This document shows positions 12,901 to 58,571 of a DNA stretch of 64,000 bases, in pieces. The stretch is taken from IMG/VR virus record IMGVR_UViG_3300025880_000012, positions 12,928 through 76,927 of that record; one strand, given 5' to 3'. A program made the translations under genes and the position numbers. This DNA is from a virus. The notes beneath the pieces are model-generated. The model saw nothing but the letters and a program-made list of their open reading frames with translations, had not been told where the DNA came from and did not search any database. Each line of letters begins with the position of its first letter. Positions within the stretch are counted from its first letter, which is position 1.

Positions 12901-13943
12901 AATTAACTGAAGAACATAAAAAGTTTATAGACGAAAATTTCCAAAGAATGCCAGATTTAATTGAATTGACTCGAGCAACATTTAAAGATGGAACAATTGA
13001 TGGTAGGTCGAAGCAGGGAAGAGCGGTAAGAGCTTACCTTGCATCAAAGGAAATTAAATATAAAACATCTGAACATGAAATAGTTAAACCAATTGTATTA
13101 TCAGAAGAGCAGAAAAATTTCATTGAACAATATTCTCAAGATGGAATGAGTAGCTACCAAATTGCACAGCTATTATTTCCTGATGATGAGGTCAAAAAAT
13201 TGGGTAGAGAACAAAGGGCTGTAGGCAATTACCTAGAGGCAGTAAAAAAAAGAAAAAGAGAAGAAAATCGAGCCGCACGCAACAAATACGATGAACCTAA
13301 AAATATAGCTGAATGCTTAGAAAAGGTCAACCTATATACTGATGCAGGACTAAGAGAAGGAGAAATGAAAGCAATGGAAAAAAAATCAATTGAATCTTTA
13401 TTTCGTTTTTTAAAATCTCCAAGATTTACTCAGATTATAAGTAATTACCATAAAGAAGAAGATCAAGATTTATTTGAAGCGGAATTTATTCGAGCTACTT
13501 GGGATAAGCCTGATTTAACTACTGATGAAGTTAATTTGTATGTAAATGTATGTGTTGATTATATAAACTTAAAAAATATATCTTCACACATGGAGAAGTT
13601 AAATAGAATGTTTGATGAAGCAGACGAACAGCAAGAGCTGACGGTAAGGTTATCGGAACTACTAAAAACCAAAAGTGAAGAGTATAACCAATGCGAAAAA
13701 CGACAGGAGTCTTTAATACAAAGACTTGCTGGAGACAGATCAAAAAGGATATCCCAACGTCAAGATCAAAACGCATCAATACTTTCATTAGTCGAAAGCT
13801 TTCAAAACGAAGAAGAGCGAAAACTAATGGTAAAGATGGCAAACATGCAAAAGAAGGCCATCAAGGAAGAAGCTGATAATTTGGAATCTATGAATTCTTG
13901 GAAGTCAAGAATATTAGGCATATCTAAAAGCGATGTCATCTAG
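12897..13943 (+). CDS. HTH and coiled-coil protein of the packaging operon (possible terminase small subunit)
   Basis: LSEEQK...GMSSYQIAQLLF HTH-like segment; helical C-terminus; lies upstream of TerL. Confidence 0.4.
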   Translation: MKLTEEHKKFIDENFQRMPDLIELTRATFKDGTIDGRSKQGRAVRAYLASKEIKYKTSEHEIVKPIVLSEEQKNFIEQYSQDGMSSYQIAQLLFPDDEVKKLGREQRAVGNYLEAVKKRKREENRAARNKYDEPKNIAECLEKVNLYTDAGLREGEMKAMEKKSIESLFRFLKSPRFTQIISNYHKEEDQDLFEAEFIRATWDKPDLTTDEVNLYVNVCVDYINLKNISSHMEKLNRMFDEADEQQELTVRLSELLKTKSEEYNQCEKRQESLIQRLAGDRSKRISQRQDQNASILSLVESFQNEEERKLMVKMANMQKKAIKEEADNLESMNSWKSRILGISKSDVI

Positions 13944-14865
13944 TTTTAAATGTCAAGTGTGTCACGAAGAGTTTGACACAGAAAAGGGGCTTCATATACA
14001 CCTCAAGAAGCACAAGATGGATTTAGCTACTTACTATACTACATTTTATCCACGTAATAATTTATTAACAGGAAAACCATTACCTTTCAAAAAGAAAGAT
14101 GATTACTTTAATAATGACTTTTCTACTCGCAGTCAATTAATAAAATGGTGCATGTCTCAAGATAAAGAGACGGCTGCAGAATACGCATTAAAGAAATTAA
14201 AACAAAGAATAGAATTAAAGGGTCTTAAGTACGCTCCAAACCATTTAGAGTTAAAGATCAACAAGTTGCCAGACATAGATGTCTACAAATATGCTTTTGG
14301 TTCGTATGGAGCAGCATGTAAAGCGGCTGGAGTAAGACCGCTACATGGTAGTGCGATTGATGAAAACTTTTTTAAGGAAGATGAGCATTTTGAGAATTTG
14401 AAGATTTTTGTTGACACAAGAGAGCAAAAACCATTAACCTTTAATGTGTCTGAAGATCTAAAGTTAGACTTCGGAGATTATACGGTTGGGGGCGATGATT
14501 ATAACTATACTTATGTAGATAGAAAATCTGATTCTGATTTTAAGGGCACCCTTTCGGGAGGTTTAGCTAGGTTCAAAAGAGAGCTTCAGAGAGTGCAAGA
14601 TTTTGACTCATACTTATTTATAGTTGTGGAAAGCGATCTTAATAGGTTATATAAAAATAATGCTTTCGGCCCACACAAATCAAATTTAGAATTCATATAC
14701 CACAACATGAGATTAATATCTCACGAGTTTGCTGGAAGTTGTCAATTTGTTTTTACAGGTACTCGAACAAACTCTCAATCAGTCATCCCTAAGATTTTAA
14801 CTTTAGGTAAGAAATTATGGGATGTTGATTTACAATATTATATAGATAAAAATGGCTTGGGATGA
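13933..14865 (+). CDS. C2H2 zinc finger plus ERCC4/XPF-family nuclease
   Basis: CQVC...HLKKH; VDTREQ, GDY, DRKSxxDF, RFxRE and IVVE motifs of ERCC4. Confidence 0.75.
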   Translation: MSSSFKCQVCHEEFDTEKGLHIHLKKHKMDLATYYTTFYPRNNLLTGKPLPFKKKDDYFNNDFSTRSQLIKWCMSQDKETAAEYALKKLKQRIELKGLKYAPNHLELKINKLPDIDVYKYAFGSYGAACKAAGVRPLHGSAIDENFFKEDEHFENLKIFVDTREQKPLTFNVSEDLKLDFGDYTVGGDDYNYTYVDRKSDSDFKGTLSGGLARFKRELQRVQDFDSYLFIVVESDLNRLYKNNAFGPHKSNLEFIYHNMRLISHEFAGSCQFVFTGTRTNSQSVIPKILTLGKKLWDVDLQYYIDKNGLG

Positions 14866-16720
14866 AGGAAATCAAACTCGTCGACCTAAGGAAGACGTCA
14901 ATCAAGAAATTCTTAATTTAGAAGGTTTCCTCGATGAAAATGAGGCAAAGCAAAATCTTTATAAATTCTTAAAAGATAATATTACCTTTACTACTAGTTT
15001 AGTAGGTGGAGTAGATTTATTTCCTTTTCAACACATGGCTATCAAAGCTATGTTTGAGACTGATTATTTCATGGGGGTATGGAGTCGTGGTATGAGTAAA
15101 TCTTTTACTACTGGTGTATACGCTTTCCTTGATGCTATAATGCATCAGGGTGTTGAAATTGGAATATTGGCTGCATCATTTAGACAGTCAAAACAAATAT
15201 TTAAAAAAATTGAAGACATCGCCGCAAAGCCTGAAGCTAGAATGCTAGCGAATTGTATAACTAAAAAATCAAAAAGCAATGATGAATGGTTAATGGAAAT
15301 TGGGAGAAGTAGGATTAGAGCCTTGCCATTAGGAGATGGATCCAAGCTTCGGGGATTTAGGTTTCATAGAATTATTATTGATGAGTTCCTATTGATGCCG
15401 GAAAGAATCTACAATGAAGTTATTGTCCCCTTTCTTTCTGTAGTAGAAAATCCAACTCAAAGAGAAGACTTGTATAATTTAGAGACTAAGTTGATTGATC
15501 AAGGCAAAATGAAAGAGGAAGATAGATATGTATGGCCGAACAATAAATTAATTATGTTGTCTTCCGCTAGTTACAAATTTGAATACATGTATAAGCTTTA
15601 CAGTCAATTTGAAAACTTAATTCAAGGTAAAGATGTTGATCAAGATAAAGCTACTAGGTGTATCATGCAGTTTTCTTATGATTGTGCACCTAAGCAGCTT
15701 TACGACCAAAACCTCATAACTCAAGCTAAGGCTACAATGAGTCAGTCCCAGTTTGAGCGTGAGTTTGGAGCGTTATTTACAGATGACAGTTCTGGATACT
15801 TCAAAACGTCTAGAATGGCATCATGTACTATACAAGACGGAGAAGATCCTCATGTTGAAATTAAGGGTCAGCCTGAGGATGAATACATATTAGCTTTCGA
15901 CCCATCTTGGTCAGAAAGTGAAAGTAGTGATGATTTTGCTATGCATGTATTAAAGTATCATAAAAGCACAGGCACTTCAACATTAGTACATTCTTATGCA
16001 ATGTCTGGAACTCCACTTCGAGAACATATTTTTTATTTTCATTATCTTATCAAAAACTTTAATATCATTGCTATAGTTGGAGATTATAATGGAGGAGTTC
16101 AATTTATCAATGCAGTTAATGAGAGTGAGTTATTTAAAACTAGCAATATAAAAATAAAAGGTGTTGACGGCGATTTCGATAAAATGGAAAATTATAAAGA
16201 TGAATTAAGAACTGCGAAAATGCAGTACAATAAAAAAGATTATAAGTATTTATTCCTAAGAAAGCCTACATCTGATTGGATCAGAAAAGCTAATGAGTTA
16301 TTGCAAGCAAATTTTGATCATAAACGTATTTGGTTTGGTTCTAGAGCGATTGATGAAGCTTACAATAAACAAAGAGCTAAAAAAATACCAATCAATAAAT
16401 TAAAATTTCTTAGATTGTCTGAAGAAGAGTTAAAGCAAAGTGGTCAAGCAAAAATGATAGACTTTATAGAACATCAATACGACATGATTAACATGACAAA
16501 AAATCAATGTGCATTAATTCAGATCACAACTTCACCTCAAGGAACGCAGACTTTTGGGTTACCTCCAGAGCTTAGAAGGCAGACTGGACCTGATAAAGCA
16601 AGGAAGGATTCGTACTCAGCCTTAGTTCTTGGGAGTTGGATGGTTAAGGTATTTCATGACATGAATAACTCCAAGGCTCAGCAAGCCCATTCTACATTTG
16701 CTCCAATGTTTATAAGTTAA
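14852..16720 (+). CDS. terL: Terminase large subunit
   Basis: PFQ motif, SRGMSKS Walker A variant, LRGFR..IIIDE Walker B, LSSA motif III, LAFDPS...DDFA and KDSYSA nuclease motifs. Confidence 0.85.
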   Translation: MAWDEGNQTRRPKEDVNQEILNLEGFLDENEAKQNLYKFLKDNITFTTSLVGGVDLFPFQHMAIKAMFETDYFMGVWSRGMSKSFTTGVYAFLDAIMHQGVEIGILAASFRQSKQIFKKIEDIAAKPEARMLANCITKKSKSNDEWLMEIGRSRIRALPLGDGSKLRGFRFHRIIIDEFLLMPERIYNEVIVPFLSVVENPTQREDLYNLETKLIDQGKMKEEDRYVWPNNKLIMLSSASYKFEYMYKLYSQFENLIQGKDVDQDKATRCIMQFSYDCAPKQLYDQNLITQAKATMSQSQFEREFGALFTDDSSGYFKTSRMASCTIQDGEDPHVEIKGQPEDEYILAFDPSWSESESSDDFAMHVLKYHKSTGTSTLVHSYAMSGTPLREHIFYFHYLIKNFNIIAIVGDYNGGVQFINAVNESELFKTSNIKIKGVDGDFDKMENYKDELRTAKMQYNKKDYKYLFLRKPTSDWIRKANELLQANFDHKRIWFGSRAIDEAYNKQRAKKIPINKLKFLRLSEEELKQSGQAKMIDFIEHQYDMINMTKNQCALIQITTSPQGTQTFGLPPELRRQTGPDKARKDSYSALVLGSWMVKVFHDMNNSKAQQAHSTFAPMFIS

Positions 16721-45952: not shown

Positions 45953-46765
45953 TTATATTCTATCCGATCTATTAATGTAACCTTTATAAGATAACTGCAA
46001 TTTTAAGGATTCATTACTGCTACTTTGAATAGATTGACTTAACAGTCTGGCATTCTTGATTGTTATAGATTCAATTAATTGGTCATTAATAGGGTTACTT
46101 AAGGAAATTTCAACATCCTTCATTATAGGGGATTCTAAGTAGCTTGAAATTTTAGGCACTTCGTAGTTGTCGATATCAATACTAACATTTAATTCTTGAT
46201 ATATCGGGAAGTCCGTATGTACTTGAACGGGAAAAGGTTCACTAACTTTATAAATAGGTTCTCTATTGATACGTATAGAATAATCAAAGCTAGATACTCT
46301 ATTAGTATTGAAGCCATGAACATCAAGAAGTATTGAGCCTTGGTTTGGTATTTGTATGGGTGGGTGAGCTAAATTACCTTGATCTTTGAGGCCTTCACCA
46401 ATATCTCCATAGACCACAATAGATGCATTAGCTGTGGGAATTTGACCAATACCTGCAGATAGAGAATATTCAGTTAAAAATCCACTCAAGAAACCAAAAC
46501 TAGAATCTCCGTAATTAATGCTACCACTAATCGGTTGATCTCCAGTGTAATCAAGTAACTTTTCCTCACCAATGTAATATTTAGAAATGTTAAAATTGCC
46601 AACTAAAGAACCTTGCCTTACAGGAAAAGTGTGACCTTTACCGATGATGTTAATGGGAGATTCATCAATACTATAACCACCATCTATACTAACTACCCCC
46701 GACAATTGACACCCATCAAGAAAGAATTCCTGATCATAGTTAAAATGGGCATTTTTAAATGCCAC
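45953..46765 (-). CDS. Putative tail structural protein (tube/hub-like)
   Basis: Immediately downstream of the TMP; beta-rich; distant paralog of 44755..45948. Confidence 0.5.
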   Translation of the reverse strand: MAFKNAHFNYDQEFFLDGCQLSGVVSIDGGYSIDESPINIIGKGHTFPVRQGSLVGNFNISKYYIGEEKLLDYTGDQPISGSINYGDSSFGFLSGFLTEYSLSAGIGQIPTANASIVVYGDIGEGLKDQGNLAHPPIQIPNQGSILLDVHGFNTNRVSSFDYSIRINREPIYKVSEPFPVQVHTDFPIYQELNVSIDIDNYEVPKISSYLESPIMKDVEISLSNPINDQLIESITIKNARLLSQSIQSSSNESLKLQLSYKGYINRSDRI

Positions 46766-49700
46766 TCAGTACGCCTCCTATTTTTTGTTCTTGAGAAATA
46801 ACATTAACGACTGCATCTTTGATTCGCGATGCAAATTCTTGCTCATTTGGGCCACCTCCTTCAGTAGATACAGATCCGTTAGGTGAAACATTAATGTTAA
46901 CAGTCACATTACTAGAATTAGTTTGGTTTTCACTTTGAGTATTTACAGTTTCAGTTTTTTTACTTTCAGGACTATCTACTATACCACCCTGATTCATTTT
47001 AATAGTGTTTAATTTGTTGAAAAATCCTGGATACTTCTTTTCAACTTTCTGTACACTTGAAGCCTTAACAACATATTCACCTTTATCAAGCATCACTGGC
47101 CCAACTTTGTCAATCCCACCAGGACCGTGAACCTTGCCACCTTTACTCATGTACATTGTTTTATTTTGGTGAGACTGATCTCTAAAGTAGTTACTTTTAT
47201 TGTCAAAAGAAGAATTTTGGTTTTGATAGCTAACATTATTTATGGGGCGAGATAAATTCATATTAGAATGACTATTGATAGTATTGCGATTTATGGAAGA
47301 TACATTATTAGAGCGATCACCATCTCTAGGCGCGGAGAAAGGGTTATTAGATTTAGGTAAGTTAGTAAAAGCTGATTGATTATTATAAGAACTCATAGAG
47401 TTGATCACACTTTGATTTCTGGAGTTACCAGCATAAGAATTGAATGATTGATTTGCATTGCTATTTTTGCTATTGTGATAACGAGATTGTTTTGAATTAT
47501 CTTCATGAGAATTAAAAACTGACCCTCCATTATTGAATTGAGAATATTTATTAATAGAATGACTGGAAACACTACCGCCTTGATTAAAATTAGAGTAAGG
47601 GGATCTGCTGGAGTCAGTATTAAATACCGAGCCTCCCTGATTAAAATATGAGTGTGGATTATTAGAAGAATAATTATTACTCACAGACCCTCCTTGGTTG
47701 AAGAAAGATTGACGGGAAGAATTTGAACGTGAATTAGACGTAGAGCCTCCCTGATTAAAATATGAGTGTGGATTATTAGATGAGTAACTACTACTTACAG
47801 ATCCCCCTTGATTAAAGAGAGATTGACGGGAATCGTTTGATTGCGAATCAATGACTGATCCACCTTGATTAAAGTATGAATACGGATTACTAGAGGAAGT
47901 GGTGTTTACTGAGCCTCCTCTATTGTAATATGAATAAGCTGATGAGCTAGGAGATGAATGACTAATTAGCCCTCCACTGTAATTGCCATCAACAACACTA
48001 CATACACCTCCACTGCATTGTTGTAAACTAGACAGTTCGGATTGTAAGCCTTCCTTGGAAAAATTGTAATTTTTATATGTATCTTTATCTAATAAATACT
48101 GGATACTTTTAGTTTTCTTTGCATTGTCTACTGGTGTCAAGTCTTCATTTGACATTTTACTCAATGCATTAAGGTTGTCTGCAGCTTTGTCAGATTTATA
48201 AGCAGTAGTTACTTTATTAAAACCTTTTGAAAGCATGTTAGCTCCAAATGACATAGCTAGCCCAGTTGTTAAGTTTCCAAGCATTTGAGCTTTCTCTTGA
48301 ACTTTTTGATTTTTTTTGTCAACATCATATTGATATTTTGCGAGAAGGTATTCACCGTATTGCTTTGAATAGTCATCTTTCTTGCGAAATCTAGCACTCA
48401 TCATATTACCAGTAGGATCAATATCTAAAGCAGATTTAGTGTTTAGGCGTTGGTATGCCTTGGGTGCTTCGGGGCCACTATACTCTTCTGGTTCGCGATC
48501 TTCTTTATTGGCAAAAGATTGACCTACTAAAGTGCCGCCACCTTTAGCTATTTTCGTTAAGGCACTATCACTACCTTTACTGGATAGAGCATTTTTAGTT
48601 TTGTCCCATGCTCTCGATACCCAACTACCCTGATTAAGCTTTAATACAGTGGAATCTAATTTATCAATTGATCCAGAAAGCCTATTAATTGGACTAGAAT
48701 AATCAGCATTATCTGTTTCAAAAATAGAATTAGGTATAGCAGAATTTTCATCAGAATTTGATTGAGAGCTATTAGATTGCAATAAACTTTTAGCCATAAG
48801 TCCACCGTCGGACATTGGAGTCAAGATAGGCATTGGACCCGCACCCTCTGTAGATACATCAAACGACTCTTGGTTGGGCTGATTAAACAAGTCATCTAGG
48901 GAGCCACTTTCATTTATATTATCTAAGGCCGAAACTCCGAGTCGATCAACAATTTTCTTTTTAACGACATACTCACCAGAAGTCAACATGGAGGGAACTT
49001 TATTCGAGTTACCAACAGTACCACCCGATGCATAACCTTGTATTAAGCCACCTTGATATTTACCTCCAAAACCATCCATTAAATCAAATATTCCGCTCGT
49101 GATTTGTTTGGCAGCTCGTTCTGTCAATGCATTACTTATTGAACTTGCGATACCGCCAGCAAACTGAAGAAATGAATCGCTCATACTTTTTGTGCCATCA
49201 CCCATATTTTTCACTAAATCTTTAAAGCCATTCTCAACAGCATCAAAGGTAGTATTAGCCATAGTTTCTCCAAACTTTTCAAGAGCTAAATTGTTTTCTT
49301 TTATACGTTCTGTTATAGTATCTCTAAACAAAGTTTCTTTGCCAAGCTCGATGTTCATTTCTTTTTGCTTCTTGGCAATTTCTACATCGATCTCTGCCGT
49401 CTTAAGGGTGTTACCTTGGCTAGCATAAACTCCTTGCTTACCTTTTAATTCCTCCATATCAGCCGTCAAATTAGTTCTAACCGCTTCGTTTTCAGCTTCC
49501 CAACCAGTTAAACCCGTATTAGCTCCAGATTCAATGACGCGAGATTTGCCCTGTATGGTTTGCAATCTCTGGTCTGCCTCAGATGTTGAGAGGTCGGATT
49601 GCATTAATCCAATGTTTGCAAAATGACCTTCCGCTAATTTAACTCTGATGTCAGCAATAGTTTTTTCAAGATCTTGGCTTTCCTTAGTGATACTATTGAG

Positions 49701-52700
49701 ACTTTCTTGCAAATGTACACCTGCTTCTCTGTCAGCTTTAAATTGTTCGGTTAGATTGCCTGATTCATTTATGAGTTGATCAAATTTTACTTTCGATTCG
49801 GCTTGAAATCCAGTCATACCCTGAAATGGAGACTCAGAATCAGTGATCACTTCACGTTTTTTGGATATCGCTTGAGATTCACCTTGCGTAGAAATGTTGT
49901 CTAATTCAATTTTCTCTAAGGCTTTTTTACCAAAATCATTGCTATCCAACCTTGCTCGAGCTTCAATTAAACTTTTAGAAAAATTTATAGACTCTTCCGT
50001 CATACTTCTTGAAGCTTCCGCTTCATATTTTTTAAATTGAATATTAGCTTTATGTTGATCGGTTAAATTATTGGTTTCAGTAATCAAATCTTCAGTAGCT
50101 CCTTTTGCCTGCACTTGAAATCCAGTTAATCCAACAAGTTCGTTTTGTATATCTGGTGAGCTTGTGCCGGAAAAGTCATCTCTTGTGATTTTTTTAAGCA
50201 TGCCTTCTCTAGCTTGAGATTTACCTACAACATTACCATATTCCGTGATTGTGGATTGCTTGGCTTTTGTTGCAAAATCATTATCATCCAGTCTTTGCTG
50301 GAAATCGTTTACAGACTTAACCCAAGATCTACCTTCTTCGTCCATTGTATTTAAAGTTTCCTGCAAATGAACTCCAGCTGTTTTATCAGCTGCAAATTGT
50401 GCGGCAAGCTCTTTGCCGGCATTGGTAACCTCTGTAAGATTTAAATCTGCTTTACCTTCAAAAAATGTTTTTCCGGTATCTGGGTCGACTTCAAATTTTG
50501 TATTAGTCTCTGTGTTTGAATCTCGCATTTTTTTACCAAAGCCAGATCGCTCGTTGCGTATCCTTTCTTGTATTGTTTGTGCGGCAAGCTCTTGTAATTT
50601 TGTATTTTTTTCTTCCGCTGCAATTCGAGCTCTTTGCTTTGCGAGAGCTTCAAGTTCGTTTGTGTATTCTTCGTCGAGAGTTACGGCTAAAGATTCTGTA
50701 AGTTTAGAGATGTAATCTGAGTTTTGTAAGTAACTTCTTTTAAACCCATTAACTTCTTTTGAAATTTGTCCATTAATTATAACAGCATCAACTTCTTCTA
50801 ACATAGCTTTATTTACTTCTTGCTGCATGCCTCCTTGAATAGCAAGAAATTTTTTCAATTCATTATATCTATCTACTCGCTGCCTAGCTGCACCTACCCC
50901 ATTTTTATTAAGCTGAAATTCTTTACGTAATTGACCAAGATTGTTTTCTGCCATGGATTTTTCTTTATTCGCTACCCTTAATTGTTCATCTTTAGATTGG
51001 TTAATGGATTCAAGTTTGCTATTTAAGCCTTCACTAGAAACAACATTCATTTCTTGAAGTTTAGATAACTGCTTGGATTTCTCTGCTGAGTCGTTTAAAT
51101 TTTTAAGGTAATCTAAAGATCTAGCGTTAGCTTCTTCTGCAGATCTAACACCTTTAAGCTTAGCGGATAGCTCTGACATGCCCGCATCTGTGAGTTGTTT
51201 TTGTAATTTTTTGAGATTACCCTGAAATGCTTCTTCGGGATTTTCGCTAGCTTTTACTGTTTGAGTTCCAGCAAGAAAATGCGGTTTAGACAAGTCTTTA
51301 GTTTCCTGCATATTTGAGTCTTTGTATATATTTTTTTCGTAATCTCCCTTTAAAGTAGAGAAATTCATGCCAGTATTCTTTTTACTCCCAGCAAAAAGAT
51401 CTGCAGCTAATTTATTTTGTGCAGCAACAGCCTCGTCGTTTGCTTTTTTCTTTTTGTTTAAATATTCATTATCTATTTTTTTCTGTTCTATTGCAATTTT
51501 TTCGTTATTCTCTGTTCCTTCCGAAAGAAAACCTAGGGACTCTGTGAGTTTGGCTTGGTGGTTCATTCTTTGTATGGCATAATTTTGCTCGTCTTTAAGT
51601 AACTTGAGGTTGTTGTTTGCCATGGTAGCCTGTAGAGATATAGCGTTTAATAGCTTTCTTTTTTGAGCATTAACTTCTTTAGATATGGAGGCTTGTATTT
51701 CATTCTCTTTAGAAATCTTTTCTCCTTCATTGGCTATTTTTTGATATATGGGATTGATTAAAGATAAAGTAGTTCTAATATGTTCAGCACCTTTTCCTGA
51801 TGCCATTAATTGTAAAACAAACTCAGATAATGGTTGATTAACGTCAGCTATTTCATTAGCATAAGATTCCATCAAATCAAGATCTTTTCCATTATCTCCA
51901 TTGTTCATTCTTTGAAATTTACTCATTTGACCGAGAGCATCTTGCTTTTCTACCCCAGCAATATTCATAGTGTTAGATAAATTAAGTGCACCACTTCTAA
52001 AGTTTATGCGATCTTTTCGATCAAAATTTTCTTGAAAGATTTCTTCGTTACTTTTTCTTCTATACTTCATCCCTCCAGCCCCGAATTCACCTGTGAATCT
52101 TGAGTCAGCCAGAGTACCGAAATCTTTAGACACAAGACCAAGAGAATCTTTGCGCTCCATGCTTGTAGCAGCAGCAGTAACTGCTTGACGTATTGTAAGT
52201 TTAGTCATAGCTTCTTGCAGCTTCTCCATTCCTTGAGCTGTACCCGAAGTCATAGCTTGCAACTCATCTCCAGATAAATTTAGCTCTTTAGCTAATGTTA
52301 CAGCTGATTGTTGAAGTGCATTTTGATTTTTTATTAATGTGCTATTGAGAGACATTAATTTCATTTGCCCTTGATATGTATTAGCTTGACCAGAGTTGGT
52401 TAAGTCTGTTATTTGTTTTTGTGTTTCCTGGACAGATGTTGTAGCTTCCATTGCACTTCCAACGGCCTCAATACTTTTTGCTGTCTTTTTTGCGGATTTA
52501 TTGAGTGTATCTAAACCACTATCAAACCATTCTGTATTTTCTTTTAAAGCTGAAAATATGGGGATAACTCCAGCTACAACGCTACCAATTAAAGGTAAAC
52601 TCTTTGCCGCTCCACCTAAACTCTTTACAAAAGTACCCATTACACCTTTACTTTTCCCAAGAAACCCAGAGGTTCCTTGCAAGCTGCTTCCCCATTTTGT

Positions 52701-55700
52701 AAGCTTATCAGATAAACCTGAAGCCATTGGACTTAAAGCCTCAAAAGTTAAAGCTGCTTGGCTAGCACCTTGAGCAATACCAGTAAAAGTTTTTACCACT
52801 TGACCGGTAGTGCCCTCCATATCAGAAAATGCTCCTTCTAGCATATATGTAATGGTGGTCAAACCAAACAAACGACCTGTTAGATCAGTAGTTGCGTCGC
52901 TACCTTCGTTTGCTGATTTTGTGAGATTATTTATAGCTTCTTTACTTTGAATATACTCATTTTGGACATCTTCGGGAACTCCTTGCTTAAATTTTATCTT
53001 TCCAATTTTTGCGGGACCACTCTCATCTCCAAAATTAGGAATCAACCCACTACTAGCACCATGAGTTTTAGGATCTATGCCCATTTCCCTAGCTCTCTGG
53101 ATGCCTTGCTTTACTCCAGCAGGCTCATCACGAGTATTGGTAACAGCCAATCCCATAGGGTTTAACCGAGACTTTAAACTATCGTCTTGATCAACACGAA
53201 TCATTGATTCAGATATACCCGCAGATTTTTCACGAGCAATCGATTCAGCTAAAGGATTAGCGAAATTAGGAATTAACCCTCTATTCAAAAACATTAAGTC
53301 GGACCTAACTTCGGGGCTATTTTTCCATTCATTTATCAGAGCCTCCATTTTATCTTTTTTGATAAAAAGTTTTGTGTTGGGGTCTGTAATGTTTAAGTTC
53401 ATTTTCTGTTCGCCAGGTAAAGGTCTGCCGCTGGTGGCTTTAGTACCATAAAGACCTCTACGAGAAGATGATGAACTGTTGCCTGATTTTACTGATTTGT
53501 ATTGATCTCGATAACTTTTTTCGTAAGAATCTTTATCTTTAGTAAATTGACCCTTAAGTTTTTGCATCTGTTGTGGTGGCAGTTTTTTATTGGTCTCTAG
53601 CCACTTAACAAATTGATTCATATGGTTGCCGGTTCCTCCAAGGCCAGTATACCAGTCTTTTCCTCCATCGCGTCGATAAGCAAAACTTCTTTTAGCGAAA
53701 ACGTTTGGGGCAAAGTTAGGAATTAATCCCCTGTTAAAAATTTGCATAACCTCTCGTTCACGAGGGCTAATTTGATTTGTTCCATTAGGATTACGTCCAA
53801 TATCTGATTGAGGTACAATCTGATTCATTTGTTTATCGTAGAAATCATATTCTTTTCTACCATATTCTGTTTTATAATGTTTTAATAATGAAGGGTCATT
53901 TCTTCTGCCAGCAACATTAAGGTAGACACCGCCATTTTTTTTGGCCCACTCTTGTATGGCTCCGCTAGCCATAGCTTTTTTAAATTCTTCTACTTTAGGA
54001 TAGTATCCTTTTTTAGGGTCAGCTCCCTTACTTAGTATTCTCAATAACTTCTTTTTATTGAATACATTTTTTTCTGGAACAGTTTTAGACAGTACCTGGC
54101 CATCAGTCACTGGTTGTCCAGGAGTAATACTACCAGCAAAATTTTTAGCTACTGTTTTCGAAGTGCTAAAAGATGTAGCCCCAGAAGGCATTACATTGTT
54201 AGATTCACCTATATCCCTATAACCAGACATAGGCCCACTCACATGAGACTTAGCAAAATTTTGTATAATTTTAACAACATCTTCAGGAGTCTTAACTCCA
54301 GAAAAAGATGGCATATTTTTACCAATCGTAGGCTTATCAATTGTTGACCTTGATTTGCTTTGGCCTCTATATAAATTTAAGTTCGCAAAGTTAGGAATTA
54401 ATCCTCCAGAAGCATTTAATTCTTTAAGTTTTTCTTTGATATTTGGCTCAGCTCCTCCATCTTTAATTTGATCAAGAATCGAAGCAGCTTGGTCACCCAC
54501 ATTAACATAATCTCTAGCGTAAGTGAAAGCAATTTTAGAACCGTCGGGAATTCGCTCCCCAAGTGCGGGCTTAATTTTAGCTGAGGGGCCTTCTCGACTA
54601 TCTGAGGTGAGCTTATTTTTGTTTTCTGTAACAACATGCTTGCCAATTTTCTTGCCTCGCCTTTGGTCTGGCATGCCTATCATATCAGCTATTTTTGTTC
54701 CGTAGTTAAAACTATAAGTTTTAGTGGAATTAGATGCGGATTTACCTTTCATTGCAACTGGACGAGCCTTACTCTTGGGCTGTTTGAATCTAGAAAAGTT
54801 AAATAAACCTTGATTCATTATTTTCTTTAGTATTTTGGCGGGCCCATGACCATAATCATTTTGAGACCATATAGTATCTCCGTATGTATATGGACCCTGT
54901 ATGTCAAACAATTTGCGAAGTTTTGGGTCAGAAGATTGACTAGATATATTCTCTAAGTCAAAAGGCTTACTATCTTTACTGTATGATTTATTAAAAGCTT
55001 CCTCAACAATATACTTTTCAAAAGCATTCCCCTTGATAAATTGTTTACCTTGACCTGAACCTAGATTATTCAGTTCATTAATTTTCTTTTGGAAATTTTT
55101 TATTTCTTTTTCGTTTAAATGATACGTTAGACCTGGATGAAGAGGTGCATTTTTATTAAATAATTGAGATTCATTTAAATAATTCTTTGGAATATTTACA
55201 TCCTTGGCATATTCATCAATAGACTTGTATTGTTTAGATTGAAGTTTTGAGTATGCATTTTTATAATTGTAACTAGTAGTAAGTGGTTTATATTTTTGTT
55301 TTAATTTTTCATGCTCAGACTTACCTGCATCAAGAGCTATTTTATCTAAGTTTTTGCTGAAGGGGGTAATTAATTGTTTTTCTTTTGGGTTTGTTTTTTG
55401 CTTTTGAATTTGATTAAAAAATTTAGTAGCACTACTTAAGGATGGATCGATTGTATATTTACCTGATTCCTTCATAGAATCAAATCCTAAATTTCGAATA
55501 AATGAATTTGACTCTTTAGAGCCTGATAAAAATATATGAGAAGCTTGCAACTTAGTTAGCCCACTAGCCTTGAGAAAATCATCAATAGTACTCGAATTAT
55601 TTAATGAAGATTTAATTTTTCGATAATCTTTAACAAAGTTAGGAATCAAGCCTGAAGATAAATTATATTGTTTTATTAGTTTAGCTTGCTCTTTTAAAGA

Positions 55701-58571
55701 TAAAGATTCTGTATCGATACCAGATTGAGATAAAACATTTAAGGAGTCAGAAAAGTTTTCCTGTTGAAAAGATTGACCTTCTTTGGTTAAACCTCTTCTA
55801 CGTAGAAAATCAGAAATGCTTTTATCGCTATATAACCTAATACTCTTTGCGATTAAATTAGCTTGTTCAATTTTATTGTATTTAGATTCAATTGGAGTTA
55901 AGCCTTTACCTATTTGATCAACCTTAGCTTGATCGTGGGTCATTTTGTAACCCAGGGCTCCTGTGTATTTTTTATTAATTGCTTTATCGTACTTATCACC
56001 CACAGCTTTAGTGCTAGGAGCTCGCCTACCTTTTTTTCCTTTAGAAAAATTTTCAGTTTCTCCAATTGCACTAACCTTCCTATCTTTTCTGTTTTGTGGA
56101 TTATCATAGCTAGAGAAAAATACATCTCTAGATAAAACATTGACTCCTGATTGCTGTAATGCAAGAAGCTCTTTTTGTTGGGACTTGATATGACCAGCTA
56201 CAGTACTAACTGGAGCTTCTAATTTATGCAAGCCAGTTTTCTTGTTGCCTCTATAATCAGCGACACTAGTTTCTACTTGCATTTTAGCTTTTGGCAATTG
56301 AAGAATGTTGGTGCCAGGTATAATAGTAGCTTCATTGGCAAAGTTGGGAATGTAACCGCCATAATATACTGGAGTTCCATTTAGAGAAACAGAATGGCCT
56401 GATTGATACTTTGATCTTAAGGTTCTTAATTTGTCTAGCTGATCTTGACTGTAACCGTTTACCTTGCTAAGCCGATCTAAATATAAACTTCCACTACCTA
56501 GCTTTTGTTTTAAAAATGTTTCAACAAACCTTCTTTCGTTAGAATTATTAAGTTGAAAGTTTATGCTCTTCCCGGCTTTCTTGTTTTTAAATTTAATACC
56601 TTTATTGGCTGGATCGTTTAATGTGTCATTAATTTTTTGAGATCGAGTCCTGGGATCAATAAAATTCGGAATTAAGCCATCGAATTTATATGGGTCGAAG
56701 CCATGTTTATCTTGAAAAGTTGATTGGTATTGCTTGCCAGCTTGACTTTTTTGTGGAGGCAAAATAGCTTCTTGAGAAAACCCATCGAATTTTTTAACTG
56801 TTTCTGCATCGTTATACACGACATCGCCAACTCCTTTTATTTTAGTTTTCTTAATCTTACCAGGTTTATAACCTGCCTGTTTGGCTCCACCGGACTCAAC
56901 TACAGCTTCCATATTAGAGACCGAGGAATCTTTAGGGATAAGTCCAGAAGATGCAGTTTTGGGTTTACTTTGGGTTAGGCCAGGTGTAACTCCAGACCTT
57001 AATAATCCAGGAGCTAATGAAGCAGCTAATTGAGCTTGCCTTTCTAGGAATTTAGTTTGATCTGCAATTACTCCAAGCATAATTTGCTCTTGTTTAAGTT
57101 TGTCACCAGCATACTTATTTAATTCTAGAGCTAATTGCTTATTGTTACCTAAAGCCATAACAATAGATTCTTGAATTTTCCGTTCTTTGTCTTTAGCTGA
57201 AACTATTCCAAGAATATCTTTAAGAGAACTTTTAGCGAATTTTAAGGCATTAAAAAACAACTTACCAAATATACCGAATGCAACGACTAAACCTGGACCA
57301 GTTAAAACACTTCCTATTCCTCGAACCAAACCTTTAGCGAAATCCGAGCCCAAGGATTCTGAATCTGAGCCAAATAAATCATTTAAAGCTCCACCAGCCG
57401 AATTAATAGCATCCAATATATTTGAAATACCTGGAGCTAAAGCTAGCTCTCCTATGTTGGCAGATAATTCTTGAATGGTGAGTGAGGTTTGTTTCGCTAA
57501 AGAGGATATTGTTTGCTGGAGCTGAGCGTTTTTTTGCTGTGCTTGGTCGGTAGCACTAGCTGATATATTAGTCGCTTGCGCATACAGAGAATTCTCTCTG
57601 TTTAAATCTTTCAAAGCAGCCTTTAAGACATTAATTTGAAAAACACCACCGACTTGCTCTGCAACTGCAGCTTTCGTTGAAGATCCTAAAGTATCATAAG
57701 TTTTAGATAAACTAGTCAAGACTGTTAAAGCTGGTAGAGTGTTGCCTCTAATATCTCGAACGGCCACCCCGAGTTCTTCTAACCTATCCAAAGTACTACT
57801 TCGTTGTATACGAGTAAATATTGTTTTAAAACTATTACCAATAACAGCACCACCACGAGCTGTAATTTGTTGCGCAGAAGTTACTGCTCCTACCAACTGA
57901 TCAAAGCTTACCCCAGCATCTTGAGCTACAGCTCCAGATCGAGCTAGAGCATTAATTAAATCGTCCGCACTAACAGCAAACTTAACGTCTACTGCAGCCA
58001 ATTTATTAATTATAGAGGTAGTAGTTAGGCCAGCATCAGCAAAACCATTGACGGCAGCAGTCAAACCAGAAACTGCAGCCGCTGCATCGATTCCAGTTAG
58101 TCGAGTTAATATCAATGCATCATTGGTTCGACGTAATGTTTCCTCCATGGATAGACCTTGACGAGAGAATTCTAAAGCTGCTTCCGCAGCTATTTCTAAG
58201 CCTTGAGATGTGTTGCGAGCTACATCAAATAAGTCTCGACCAAATTTTTCTAAATTAGGCAAACTCGTACCTAATACAACATTAATGTCTGTTAAAAGTT
58301 TTTCAACTTTAATCGCTTGTATTACAACTTGAGAGAATGCTGTTGCTACACTACCTATAATGGCCGCTGATGCTCCAAATGCAATCACACGAGCGTTAGA
58401 TGCTTCTAAAGATTTAGAAAACTCATCAGCTTTTTGAGTTATTCTACCCAAAGGTTGTGTGTAATCTGATGCGCGAATTTTAACACTCAAGCCTCTACGA
58501 TTAACTCGATTGACGATATCTTGAATAGATTCGTCTAACCCTACTACTCTTCCTTTAATGTTTAATGCCAT
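46755..58571 (-). CDS. Tape measure protein (TP901-like N-terminal core) with internal cassette array
   Basis: EFSRQG, LARSGAVA..AGVSFDQL, GGAVIGNSFKTIF core; long Ala/Leu/Glu/Lys helical tracts; two GG...MLxxGEYVV motifs; located between chaperones and M/L/K/I/J. Confidence 0.9.
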   Translation of the reverse strand: MALNIKGRVVGLDESIQDIVNRVNRRGLSVKIRASDYTQPLGRITQKADEFSKSLEASNARVIAFGASAAIIGSVATAFSQVVIQAIKVEKLLTDINVVLGTSLPNLEKFGRDLFDVARNTSQGLEIAAEAALEFSRQGLSMEETLRRTNDALILTRLTGIDAAAAVSGLTAAVNGFADAGLTTTSIINKLAAVDVKFAVSADDLINALARSGAVAQDAGVSFDQLVGAVTSAQQITARGGAVIGNSFKTIFTRIQRSSTLDRLEELGVAVRDIRGNTLPALTVLTSLSKTYDTLGSSTKAAVAEQVGGVFQINVLKAALKDLNRENSLYAQATNISASATDQAQQKNAQLQQTISSLAKQTSLTIQELSANIGELALAPGISNILDAINSAGGALNDLFGSDSESLGSDFAKGLVRGIGSVLTGPGLVVAFGIFGKLFFNALKFAKSSLKDILGIVSAKDKERKIQESIVMALGNNKQLALELNKYAGDKLKQEQIMLGVIADQTKFLERQAQLAASLAPGLLRSGVTPGLTQSKPKTASSGLIPKDSSVSNMEAVVESGGAKQAGYKPGKIKKTKIKGVGDVVYNDAETVKKFDGFSQEAILPPQKSQAGKQYQSTFQDKHGFDPYKFDGLIPNFIDPRTRSQKINDTLNDPANKGIKFKNKKAGKSINFQLNNSNERRFVETFLKQKLGSGSLYLDRLSKVNGYSQDQLDKLRTLRSKYQSGHSVSLNGTPVYYGGYIPNFANEATIIPGTNILQLPKAKMQVETSVADYRGNKKTGLHKLEAPVSTVAGHIKSQQKELLALQQSGVNVLSRDVFFSSYDNPQNRKDRKVSAIGETENFSKGKKGRRAPSTKAVGDKYDKAINKKYTGALGYKMTHDQAKVDQIGKGLTPIESKYNKIEQANLIAKSIRLYSDKSISDFLRRRGLTKEGQSFQQENFSDSLNVLSQSGIDTESLSLKEQAKLIKQYNLSSGLIPNFVKDYRKIKSSLNNSSTIDDFLKASGLTKLQASHIFLSGSKESNSFIRNLGFDSMKESGKYTIDPSLSSATKFFNQIQKQKTNPKEKQLITPFSKNLDKIALDAGKSEHEKLKQKYKPLTTSYNYKNAYSKLQSKQYKSIDEYAKDVNIPKNYLNESQLFNKNAPLHPGLTYHLNEKEIKNFQKKINELNNLGSGQGKQFIKGNAFEKYIVEEAFNKSYSKDSKPFDLENISSQSSDPKLRKLFDIQGPYTYGDTIWSQNDYGHGPAKILKKIMNQGLFNFSRFKQPKSKARPVAMKGKSASNSTKTYSFNYGTKIADMIGMPDQRRGKKIGKHVVTENKNKLTSDSREGPSAKIKPALGERIPDGSKIAFTYARDYVNVGDQAASILDQIKDGGAEPNIKEKLKELNASGGLIPNFANLNLYRGQSKSRSTIDKPTIGKNMPSFSGVKTPEDVVKIIQNFAKSHVSGPMSGYRDIGESNNVMPSGATSFSTSKTVAKNFAGSITPGQPVTDGQVLSKTVPEKNVFNKKKLLRILSKGADPKKGYYPKVEEFKKAMASGAIQEWAKKNGGVYLNVAGRRNDPSLLKHYKTEYGRKEYDFYDKQMNQIVPQSDIGRNPNGTNQISPREREVMQIFNRGLIPNFAPNVFAKRSFAYRRDGGKDWYTGLGGTGNHMNQFVKWLETNKKLPPQQMQKLKGQFTKDKDSYEKSYRDQYKSVKSGNSSSSSRRGLYGTKATSGRPLPGEQKMNLNITDPNTKLFIKKDKMEALINEWKNSPEVRSDLMFLNRGLIPNFANPLAESIAREKSAGISESMIRVDQDDSLKSRLNPMGLAVTNTRDEPAGVKQGIQRAREMGIDPKTHGASSGLIPNFGDESGPAKIGKIKFKQGVPEDVQNEYIQSKEAINNLTKSANEGSDATTDLTGRLFGLTTITYMLEGAFSDMEGTTGQVVKTFTGIAQGASQAALTFEALSPMASGLSDKLTKWGSSLQGTSGFLGKSKGVMGTFVKSLGGAAKSLPLIGSVVAGVIPIFSALKENTEWFDSGLDTLNKSAKKTAKSIEAVGSAMEATTSVQETQKQITDLTNSGQANTYQGQMKLMSLNSTLIKNQNALQQSAVTLAKELNLSGDELQAMTSGTAQGMEKLQEAMTKLTIRQAVTAAATSMERKDSLGLVSKDFGTLADSRFTGEFGAGGMKYRRKSNEEIFQENFDRKDRINFRSGALNLSNTMNIAGVEKQDALGQMSKFQRMNNGDNGKDLDLMESYANEIADVNQPLSEFVLQLMASGKGAEHIRTTLSLINPIYQKIANEGEKISKENEIQASISKEVNAQKRKLLNAISLQATMANNNLKLLKDEQNYAIQRMNHQAKLTESLGFLSEGTENNEKIAIEQKKIDNEYLNKKKKANDEAVAAQNKLAADLFAGSKKNTGMNFSTLKGDYEKNIYKDSNMQETKDLSKPHFLAGTQTVKASENPEEAFQGNLKKLQKQLTDAGMSELSAKLKGVRSAEEANARSLDYLKNLNDSAEKSKQLSKLQEMNVVSSEGLNSKLESINQSKDEQLRVANKEKSMAENNLGQLRKEFQLNKNGVGAARQRVDRYNELKKFLAIQGGMQQEVNKAMLEEVDAVIINGQISKEVNGFKRSYLQNSDYISKLTESLAVTLDEEYTNELEALAKQRARIAAEEKNTKLQELAAQTIQERIRNERSGFGKKMRDSNTETNTKFEVDPDTGKTFFEGKADLNLTEVTNAGKELAAQFAADKTAGVHLQETLNTMDEEGRSWVKSVNDFQQRLDDNDFATKAKQSTITEYGNVVGKSQAREGMLKKITRDDFSGTSSPDIQNELVGLTGFQVQAKGATEDLITETNNLTDQHKANIQFKKYEAEASRSMTEESINFSKSLIEARARLDSNDFGKKALEKIELDNISTQGESQAISKKREVITDSESPFQGMTGFQAESKVKFDQLINESGNLTEQFKADREAGVHLQESLNSITKESQDLEKTIADIRVKLAEGHFANIGLMQSDLSTSEADQRLQTIQGKSRVIESGANTGLTGWEAENEAVRTNLTADMEELKGKQGVYASQGNTLKTAEIDVEIAKKQKEMNIELGKETLFRDTITERIKENNLALEKFGETMANTTFDAVENGFKDLVKNMGDGTKSMSDSFLQFAGGIASSISNALTERAAKQITSGIFDLMDGFGGKYQGGLIQGYASGGTVGNSNKVPSMLTSGEYVVKKKIVDRLGVSALDNINESGSLDDLFNQPNQESFDVSTEGAGPMPILTPMSDGGLMAKSLLQSNSSQSNSDENSAIPNSIFETDNADYSSPINRLSGSIDKLDSTVLKLNQGSWVSRAWDKTKNALSSKGSDSALTKIAKGGGTLVGQSFANKEDREPEEYSGPEAPKAYQRLNTKSALDIDPTGNMMSARFRKKDDYSKQYGEYLLAKYQYDVDKKNQKVQEKAQMLGNLTTGLAMSFGANMLSKGFNKVTTAYKSDKAADNLNALSKMSNEDLTPVDNAKKTKSIQYLLDKDTYKNYNFSKEGLQSELSSLQQCSGGVCSVVDGNYSGGLISHSSPSSSAYSYYNRGGSVNTTSSSNPYSYFNQGGSVIDSQSNDSRQSLFNQGGSVSSSYSSNNPHSYFNQGGSTSNSRSNSSRQSFFNQGGSVSNNYSSNNPHSYFNQGGSVFNTDSSRSPYSNFNQGGSVSSHSINKYSQFNNGGSVFNSHEDNSKQSRYHNSKNSNANQSFNSYAGNSRNQSVINSMSSYNNQSAFTNLPKSNNPFSAPRDGDRSNNVSSINRNTINSHSNMNLSRPINNVSYQNQNSSFDNKSNYFRDQSHQNKTMYMSKGGKVHGPGGIDKVGPVMLDKGEYVVKASSVQKVEKKYPGFFNKLNTIKMNQGGIVDSPESKKTETVNTQSENQTNSSNVTVNINVSPNGSVSTEGGGPNEQEFASRIKDAVVNVISQEQKIGGVLSGI
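47515..47985 (-). repeat. Eight ~19-aa (F/Y)N(Q/R/N)GGS(V/T) repeats within the TMP
   Basis: Visible in translation; partial nucleotide identity (GAGCCTCCCTGATTAAAATATGAGTGTGGATTATTAGA twice). Confidence 0.9.

Follow-up and report, generated by a model that had tools for sequence, protein, structure and literature searches.

The tape measure protein (TMP) encoded in the window analyzed here, a 64,000-nucleotide stretch of IMG/VR virus record IMGVR_UViG_3300025880_000012, carries an array of seven mutually unrelated segments, or cassettes, bordered by copies of a hexapeptide with the family core G-hydrophobic-[IV]-P-N-[FY]. Among related TMPs, cassettes are inserted, lost, duplicated, replaced and reordered exactly at this hexapeptide, which is constrained as a peptide and not as DNA. 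Our analysis leans toward an interpretation in which the array is a TMP-borne, fast-evolving, multi-enzyme cargo that would be ejected ahead of the DNA, and one cassette is very probably, as judged from its predicted structure, an ADP-ribosyltransferase (ART)-fold domain with an intact R-S-E site.

The TMP is a single open frame of 3938 amino acids (aa) on the minus strand of the window (46755–58571). Residues 125–309 match PhageMin_Tail (PF10145) with 73.8 bits, against a Pfam gathering cut-off of 33.2 (E = 2.2e-20), and the protein also matches phrog_4211 (4e-40) and phrog_28, both of which are TMP families. By domain content and by position in the tail module, the product is a TP901-type tape measure protein.

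The exact form of the hexapeptide, G[LY]IPNF, occurs seven times, and a degenerate eighth copy, GLIPKD, precedes the others. Start residues are listed in Table 1, where the larger coordinate of each motif row is the first base of the Gly codon. From the composition of the TMP, 1.5e-4 copies of G[LY]IPNF are expected, and at least one IPNF appeared in only 328 of 20,000 shuffles. The seven intervening segments assign to seven different similarity families. Cassettes 1 to 6 are Lys-rich, with isoelectric points (pI) of 9.1–10.1, the last cassette has a pI of 6.8, and the helical ruler has a pI of 5.5. Hydrophobic peaks flank the array on both sides. An initial annotation of the window had described eight motif positions bracketing seven mutually unrelated and mostly Lys-rich segments, unlike the helical ruler, in a block between hydrophobic segments. 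This description holds throughout: the motif positions agree with ours to within a few bases, the segments measure 71–410 aa, and the peaks match the flanks it had named.

Cassette turnover at a conserved hexapeptide

To place the array in a wider family, we used query residues 530–1860, which retrieved at least 400 giant TMPs of 2200–5750 aa, and a scan with the TMP N-terminal domain, which matched at least 528 IMG/VR contigs. Nearly all family members contain 2–17 copies of G-[LFYH]-[IV]-P-N-[FY], usually with Ala or an aromatic residue followed by Ser-x before the motif and with Ala after it. A logo of the sequence on either side of the terminal cassette, built without reference to the motif pattern, shows 84–90% for each of G, P, N and F/Y, and ~80% for V/I. 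The motif was absent outside TMPs, both in the other six-frame open reading frames (ORFs) of the window (21,587 aa) and in non-TMP ORFs of related loci (342,872 aa). Distant, GC-rich members have a degenerate x-V-P-N-F ... P-N-F around the same terminal cassette.

A single viral contig and one clade stand out. The largest array seen, L010:1148-20674 (IMGVR_UViG_3300023109_000014), has 17 motif copies in a TMP frame that stays open for >6509 aa, up to the end of the stretch examined. L048, L051 and L056 form a GC-richer clade with TMPs of ~2000–2200 aa and degenerate copies only (E/G-V-P-N-F, x-P-N-F-S-P and N-L-P-N-F), and these bracket a single variable stretch of ~370 aa together with the terminal mini-domain; this clade may be close to the ancestral state.

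Several comparisons locate cassette turnover at the motif. When this TMP was aligned by BLASTP with 119 relatives, 204 of 262 starts and 210 of 298 ends of high-scoring segment pairs (HSPs) fell at the motif, with 11–13% expected, an excess to which the motif, as a conserved anchor, contributes in part. Cutting at the motif resolved 750 cassettes of the protein set into 124 families, and 351 cassettes from 80 viral loci into 104 families. Distinct ordered compositions were found in 54 of 64 complete arrays, 28 pairs of families were seen in both orders, and tandem cassette duplicates were present. The closest relative, P0003, is 95.6% identical in the N-terminal domain and differs by one extra and one replaced cassette, both bounded by the motif. 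Among 56 pairs with N-terminal domains at least 95% identical, only 8 share the same array, although the protein database was clustered at 90% identity, which enriches for array differences between near-identical pairs. These TMP alignments and cassette families substantiate the earlier suggestion that the segments are swappable, since relatives gain, lose and exchange them exactly at the motif.

The site of the array is more constant than its content. The first motif always lies within aa 538–653, and long arrays are no more frequent in proteins whose remaining part is long (r = 0.09 between the two lengths). Minimal relatives of ~2000 aa consist, in this region, of the first cassette, one variable cassette and the terminal cassette only.

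The initial annotation had also proposed that the motif might be an 18-nt recombination joint, GGnTTrATTCCTAAyTTT. Such a joint would drive shuffling by DNA homology, leaving the encoded peptide without a role in itself. The pattern fits only 4 of the 8 window copies. Consistent with a joint, motif copies have a mild excess of ATT and CCT codons, cassettes have been duplicated in tandem, and fourfold-site identity is higher in the ART cassette (0.44–0.50) than in the N-terminal domain (0.29–0.37), which hints at exchange of that cassette between lineages. In 332 unique motif copies, however, codon usage is near background, with the G, L, N and F codons at background and synonymous variation at every position. 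The peptide is kept between TMPs that are 45–55% identical, and its P-N-F core is kept in the GC-rich clade; moreover, homologous exchange ordinarily calls for much longer homology than eighteen imperfect bases. Because the motif codons are near background and vary synonymously, and because half of the window copies depart from the 18-nt pattern, we conclude that the constraint is on the peptide. The recombination joint is thus a weak proposal, and we consider it highly improbable as the explanation of the array. Uniformity of I/V and of L/F within proteins is over-dispersed relative to shuffles, but this is confounded by GC content and shared ancestry and was not used.

Cultured phages gave no match to the cassette region. 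Their best matches to the N-terminal domain, at 24–29% identity, are TMPs of Lactococcus 949-like and Bacillus phages, and the phage 949 TMP (3277 aa) has no motif. In GTDB genomes, the TMP was found only on contigs of aquatic metagenome-assembled genomes, which gave no host assignment. The array-bearing TMP is that of an uncultured lineage of aquatic siphoviruses.

Predicted folds of the cassettes

The ART assignment of cassette 5 draws on conserved residues and on a structural model. Relatives of this cassette span 31–87% identity, and in alignment A9, which has 23 rows and, like A6, combines the window fragment with full-length relatives, R1402, S1463, E1605 and E1607 are invariant and S1467 is at least 90% conserved. 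The R-S-E signature comprises R1402, S1463, S1467, S1469, T1470, E1605 and E1607. An AlphaFold2 model of 476 residues (aa 1385–1860), computed from the 23-row alignment, spans cassettes 5–7 and four motif copies. Over cassette 5 the predicted local distance difference test score (pLDDT) is mostly >80, with dips to 62, and the R-S-E residues map to E13-21 (strand 1), to E82-85 and H88-95, and to E223-228, as expected for an ART.

Foldseek with the cassette 5 model returned weak matches, almost all of them to ART-fold proteins. In VIA-align comparisons, the Rhs toxins TreX and TreTu scored Z 6.5–6.6, with a root mean square deviation of 3.3–3.4 over 103–104 of ~130 residues, followed by cholera toxin A1 (5.2), TccC3 (5.1), EcPltA (5.0), LT (4.8), typhoid toxin PltA (4.6), CARDS toxin (4.3), and diphtheria toxin and PARP (3.2–3.5). 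VIA-align gave no competing fold for model residues ~7–247, and a BFVD fold search gave no significant match. A first ART model, built from 12 sequences, had a pLDDT of 57, no Foldseek match, and VIA Z scores ≤3.0 though ART-enriched; it has been superseded. Alignments A2 and A3 were discarded, as MAFFT had anchored single-cassette fragment rows on the wrong motif copies.

By sequence, cassette 5 appears to lie outside any named ART family. For 12 members of its family, Pfam gave no ART family at E ≤5, and the PDB gave no ART chain at E ≤10. A profile of the cassette found 21 matches, mostly long TMP-sized proteins together with short pieces, and none was linked to a named ART family. Since no ART match was obtained by sequence in Pfam or the PDB, we file cassette 5 only as a predicted ART fold with an ART-like active site.

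Cassette 3 carries what reads as a PD-(D/E)xK-like nuclease signature. In alignment A5 (25 sequences, 20–62% identity), D152, E162, K164, K176 and S177 are invariant and E129 is at least 90% conserved; in TMP numbering, E129, D152, E162 and K164 correspond to aa ~862, 885, 895 and 897. One member has a weak CDI_toxin_EC869-like match (E 0.029). Cassette 3 itself gave no significant Pfam or PDB sequence match, and a PDB profile search was empty, as was the ESM Atlas, which offered no usable match for cassette 3 or cassette 4. In cassette 4, residues F211, E212, D232, G258, D259, G268, H269 and K277 are invariant (alignment A12); its family has 7 members among the at least 400 proteins. Single-protein scans of viral contigs with cassettes 4 and 6 returned a near-identical contig only. 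The model of cassette 6 has two helices, H264-277 and H282-311, at pLDDT 52–72, and derives from a noisy alignment.

Other cassettes are defined chiefly by their place in the array. The cassette 1 family is the first cassette in most relatives, and the cassette 2 family precedes or follows that of cassette 3, depending on the relative. The cassette 7 family is terminal in 53 of 64 arrays and is retained even in distant GC-rich members, with R-E, N-P-x-G-L and N..D-E-P invariant (alignment A11). Its model is a confident alpha-beta-beta-alpha unit, and it has no sequence relative in the PDB and no significant Pfam match. The earlier proposal that the segments fold as independent domains is borne out by confident models for at least two of them, cassettes 5 and 7. 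In the model, low-confidence stretches separate the confident domains, and all four motif copies fall within these stretches; the motif thus appears to behave as a short linear motif of flexible linkers and not as a structural element of the domains.

In some relatives, a cassette contains an SNase domain that scores above the Pfam cut-off (PF00565) or a helix-turn-helix (HTH) of the CI type. In the array at L027:11621-16765, weak matches to a GNAT acetyltransferase (E 8e-4) and to PGDYG (E 1e-3) were seen, both below Pfam cut-offs.

A proposed injected cargo array and its alternatives

In the cargo interpretation, the array would occupy a fixed site, ~90 residues past the first membrane-like segment and ahead of hydrophobic region 2, and this site would hold a hypervariable set of independently folding, strongly basic domains, successive domains being joined by flexible linkers that contain the hexapeptide. 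Since TMPs exit the tail before the DNA does, and since membrane-like segments stand on either side of the array, the modules would be expected to enter the host with the TMP, before any phage gene is expressed. Once delivered, they may act on host or nucleic-acid targets, in takeover or counter-defence. The hexapeptide would most likely be a recognition site for one common trans-acting factor needed by every module, and candidates include a processing protease, a chaperone, a docking site in the tube lumen and a host prolyl isomerase; a chaperone or a lumen docking site would keep non-helical cargo threadable. Since the same in-frame peptide stands at every junction, recombinants joined there would be functional, which would explain cassette turnover. 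The hexapeptide could also be in part a by-product of this process, in-frame joints at a shared peptide being those that yield viable recombinants.

Delivery of this kind has a precedent in gp96 of Thermus phage P23-45, a 5002-aa TMP whose N-terminal part is a virion RNA polymerase that works on the injected DNA; the protein is full-length in virions, and 5 min into infection it is located on the phage DNA (PMC10770324). The precedent makes delivery plausible and indicates that cleavage is not obligatory. Both proteins are giant siphovirus TMPs with membrane segments near a non-ruler N-terminal part that is enzymatic, acting in the cytoplasm in the case of gp96 and predicted to be so in part here. 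The enzyme of gp96 is single and fixed, with neither a recurring junction motif nor turnover of cassettes, whereas TMPs of the present family have 3 to 16 or more exchangeable modules with G-x-[IV]-P-N-[FY] at their borders.

A number of observations weigh against a delivered cargo or against parts of this proposal. No protease candidate emerged, and neither the TMP nor the 17 related arrays matched a peptidase family in Pfam, a search that divergent proteases could escape; the fused gp96, for its part, remains uncut in virions, so that cleavage is not required (PMC10770324). Folded domains of 25–45 kDa, in three copies, would be hard to fit into the lumen of a tail tube, and the cargo would have to pass through it unfolded or compacted. 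The ~19,000 aa of arrays at 17 other loci are essentially without a Pfam match. ART scores are moderate (Z ≤6.6) and come without a significant Pfam or PDB sequence match, and the ART-cassette profile, searched against 1.84 billion representatives, found no relatives outside TMPs. Finally, the cultured phages searched include no member of the family. The initial annotation had seen in the array a magazine of host-takeover or anti-defence effectors. A credible ART, a nuclease-like signature and cassette turnover sustain part of that picture, but most cassettes match no known effector family, and because Pfam matches are nearly absent and the ART cassette is confined to TMPs, most of them cannot be called effectors.

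A more specific version, which we regard as rather doubtful, makes the hexapeptide a programmed release signal and the TMP a true virion polyprotein that is cut at each junction after ejection. Either a protease of the phage or the host would make the cuts, or the protein would cleave itself in an Asn-dependent reaction, and a strain-specific cocktail of active enzymes (ART, nucleases and dozens of unknown folds) would be freed before phage transcription. The make-up of this cocktail would change through cassette exchange guided by the motif, and the TMP would be the phage equivalent of MARTX and polymorphic toxins.

The modules might instead have a structural or assembly role, filling or plugging the head-proximal tail lumen, holding the DNA end, or binding an acidic tube wall or a chaperone. 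The hexapeptide would then be a docking peptide for tube or chaperone, and turnover would stem from weak constraint or from evasion of host sensors for TMPs. All six accessory cassettes are basic (pI 9.1–10.1) in every family and the ruler is acidic, as such a role would lead one to expect; it would also accommodate the lack of an enzyme-family match for most cassettes, the conservation of first and last cassettes as a core even in minimal TMPs, the restriction of the motif to TMPs among the ORFs of the window and related loci, and the Asp/Glu-rich upstream neighbor kept in synteny. Yet filler would not require ART-like and nuclease-like catalytic residues to be invariant across 20–87% identity, nor would a pure spacer need more than 100 unrelated folds, and some relatives have a recognizable SNase domain. 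We judge a structural role possible but improbable. Less probable by far is that the cassettes are lysin- or peptidase-like enzymes that breach the envelope, working on the cell wall or in the periplasm as the phage penetrates. Embedded muralytic domains are classical additions to TMPs, and the array does sit between two membrane-like segments. A metallopeptidase domain has been noted in gp96 (PMC10770324). The window TMP and the 17 related arrays, however, contain no lysozyme, transglycosylase, amidase or peptidase family in Pfam, and the activities found or suspected (ART, PD-(D/E)xK, SNase and HTH) have cytoplasmic or nucleic-acid substrates.

An injected cargo array would have partial counterparts in several known systems. 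Polyvalent proteins combine 2–15 conflict-related domains, including ARTs, nucleases and peptidases, in one polypeptide that is delivered with invading DNA, and processing into separate domains has been proposed; they occur in phages and conjugative elements and are packaged in heads, for example as MuF fusions, or travel by type IV secretion (PMC5512222). That paper (Iyer et al. 2017, PMC5512222) does not mention tape measure proteins or describe a common junction peptide. The present TMP resembles polyvalent proteins in joining several unrelated domains, seven cassettes in this case, in one phage polypeptide, with conflict-type examples in the predicted ART and the nuclease-like cassette; it differs in that the carrier is a TMP and, as judged by Pfam, most cassettes match none of the catalogued domain families. 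Sle1-type effectors of actinobacterial contractile injection systems are related to TMPs and use a TMP-like scaffold that is loaded and ejected, with a functional domain that varies between species and can be exchanged experimentally (PMC13277306). They share with the present array a TMP-type scaffold and an exchangeable functional domain, but theirs is a single C-terminal domain in a bacterial nanomachine, with no repeated junction motif reported.

Bacterial toxins offer a further parallel. In polymorphic toxins, a short peptide (VENN in CdiA, DPxGL in Rhs) borders a constant scaffold and swappable toxin modules, and this junction peptide is also a point of recombination or processing. MARTX toxins carry several effectors in series, and both MARTX and Rhs proteins have a built-in protease. 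All are secreted bacterial toxins with cognate immunity genes. The array has in common with them a short conserved peptide bordering swappable modules, several in series; unlike them, its scaffold is a virion tail protein, and we found no immunity gene and, in Pfam, no protease domain. The literature that we searched contains no description joining IPNF with a tape measure. Enzyme-fused TMPs are already known, and what is new here is a multi-cassette array with a shared junction peptide in a phage TMP.

If the modules are delivered, phages would have in their TMPs a general carrier of ready-made effectors that can be reprogrammed quickly, in addition to two other routes, early genes and internal proteins packaged in the head. 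The cassette families, more than 100 of them, unannotated, basic and mostly Pfam-less, would then represent a large untapped pool of takeover or anti-defence activities. The hexapeptide provides an exact rule for locating module borders in sequence data and could also guide the design of phage tails with inserted cargo. A physical question arises as well, namely how 3 x 1300 residues of non-helical protein would be stored in, and pass through, a narrow tail lumen.

Gene context and feature coordinates

Table 1. Features of the TMP gene, its cassette array and upstream neighbors (window coordinates)
Feature	Position	Strand	Remarks
TMP gene, 3938 aa	46755..58571	-	single ORF; PF10145; phrog_4211
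PhageMin_Tail domain, aa 125-309	57645..58199	-	Pfam PF10145
Hydrophobic segment 1, aa 414-447, upstream array flank	57231..57332	-	Kyte-Doolittle 19-aa window, maximum 1.77
Motif copy 0, degenerate GLIPKD, aa 543-548	56928..56945	-	relatives have full G-F-I-P-N-F at this site
Cassette 1, 83 aa	56679..56927	-	family L-fam1 / P-fam3, 47-51 members; core
Motif copy 1, GLIPNF, aa 632-637	56661..56678	-	exact match
Cassette 2, 101 aa	56358..56660	-	family P-fam2, 54 members
Motif copy 2, GYIPNF, aa 739-744	56340..56357	-	exact match
Cassette 3, 229 aa	55653..56339	-	putative PD-(D/E)xK-like signature
Motif copy 3, GLIPNF, aa 974-979	55635..55652	-	commonest collinear-HSP end point
Cassette 4, 410 aa	54405..55634	-	rare family, 7 members
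Motif copy 4, GLIPNF, aa 1390-1395	54387..54404	-	exact match
Cassette 5, 219 aa	53730..54386	-	predicted ART fold, R-S-E signature
Motif copy 5, GLIPNF, aa 1615-1620	53712..53729	-	stretch with pLDDT under 50
Cassette 6, 144 aa	53280..53711	-	predicted helical hairpin, modest confidence
Motif copy 6, GLIPNF, aa 1765-1770	53262..53279	-	low-pLDDT linker
Cassette 7, 71 aa, terminal mini-domain	53049..53261	-	predicted alpha-beta-beta-alpha; pLDDT 79-86
Motif copy 7, GLIPNF, aa 1842-1847	53031..53048	-	exact match
Hydrophobic Gly-rich region 2, aa 1890-2012, downstream flank	52536..52904	-	Kyte-Doolittle peak 1.97, aa 1985-2012
Upstream neighbor, 333 aa	58607..59608	-	syntenic homologues in 38 related loci
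Second upstream ORF, 283 aa	59610..60461	-	synteny kept in 38 related loci

The source record is an IMG/VR viral contig of 76.9 kb, ~54% complete. The two ORFs upstream of the TMP gene gave no PHROG match and no Pfam match better than E 0.064; by position only, they are candidate tail chaperone or tube genes. A predicted complex between the 333-aa neighbor and the terminal cassette with two motif copies scored 0.01, which weighs neither way. By hhalign, the same neighbor is unrelated to the 'recombinase' gene upstream of the phage 949 TMP. On the 3′ side of the TMP gene are lambda-like tip genes, with ORFs that match the minor tail protein families phrog_14, phrog_18 and phrog_30.

The C-terminal part of the TMP (window 46975–49065, minus strand) has repeats of its own, ~8 (F/Y)-N-Q-G-G-S-V units within Ser/Asn-rich spacers, along with two G-G-x-V ... 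P-x-M-L-x-x-G-E-Y-V-V motifs. The front half of the (F/Y)-N-Q-G-G-S-V unit is similar to the residues before the array motif (F-N-R-G-L-I), and common ancestry of the two is possible. Elsewhere in the window, most ORFs of the head region are without a PHROG function, the large terminase subunit (phrog_2) is encoded at 14852–16720 on the plus strand, and the ORF before it (13933–14865, plus strand) has an ERCC4-type nuclease match.

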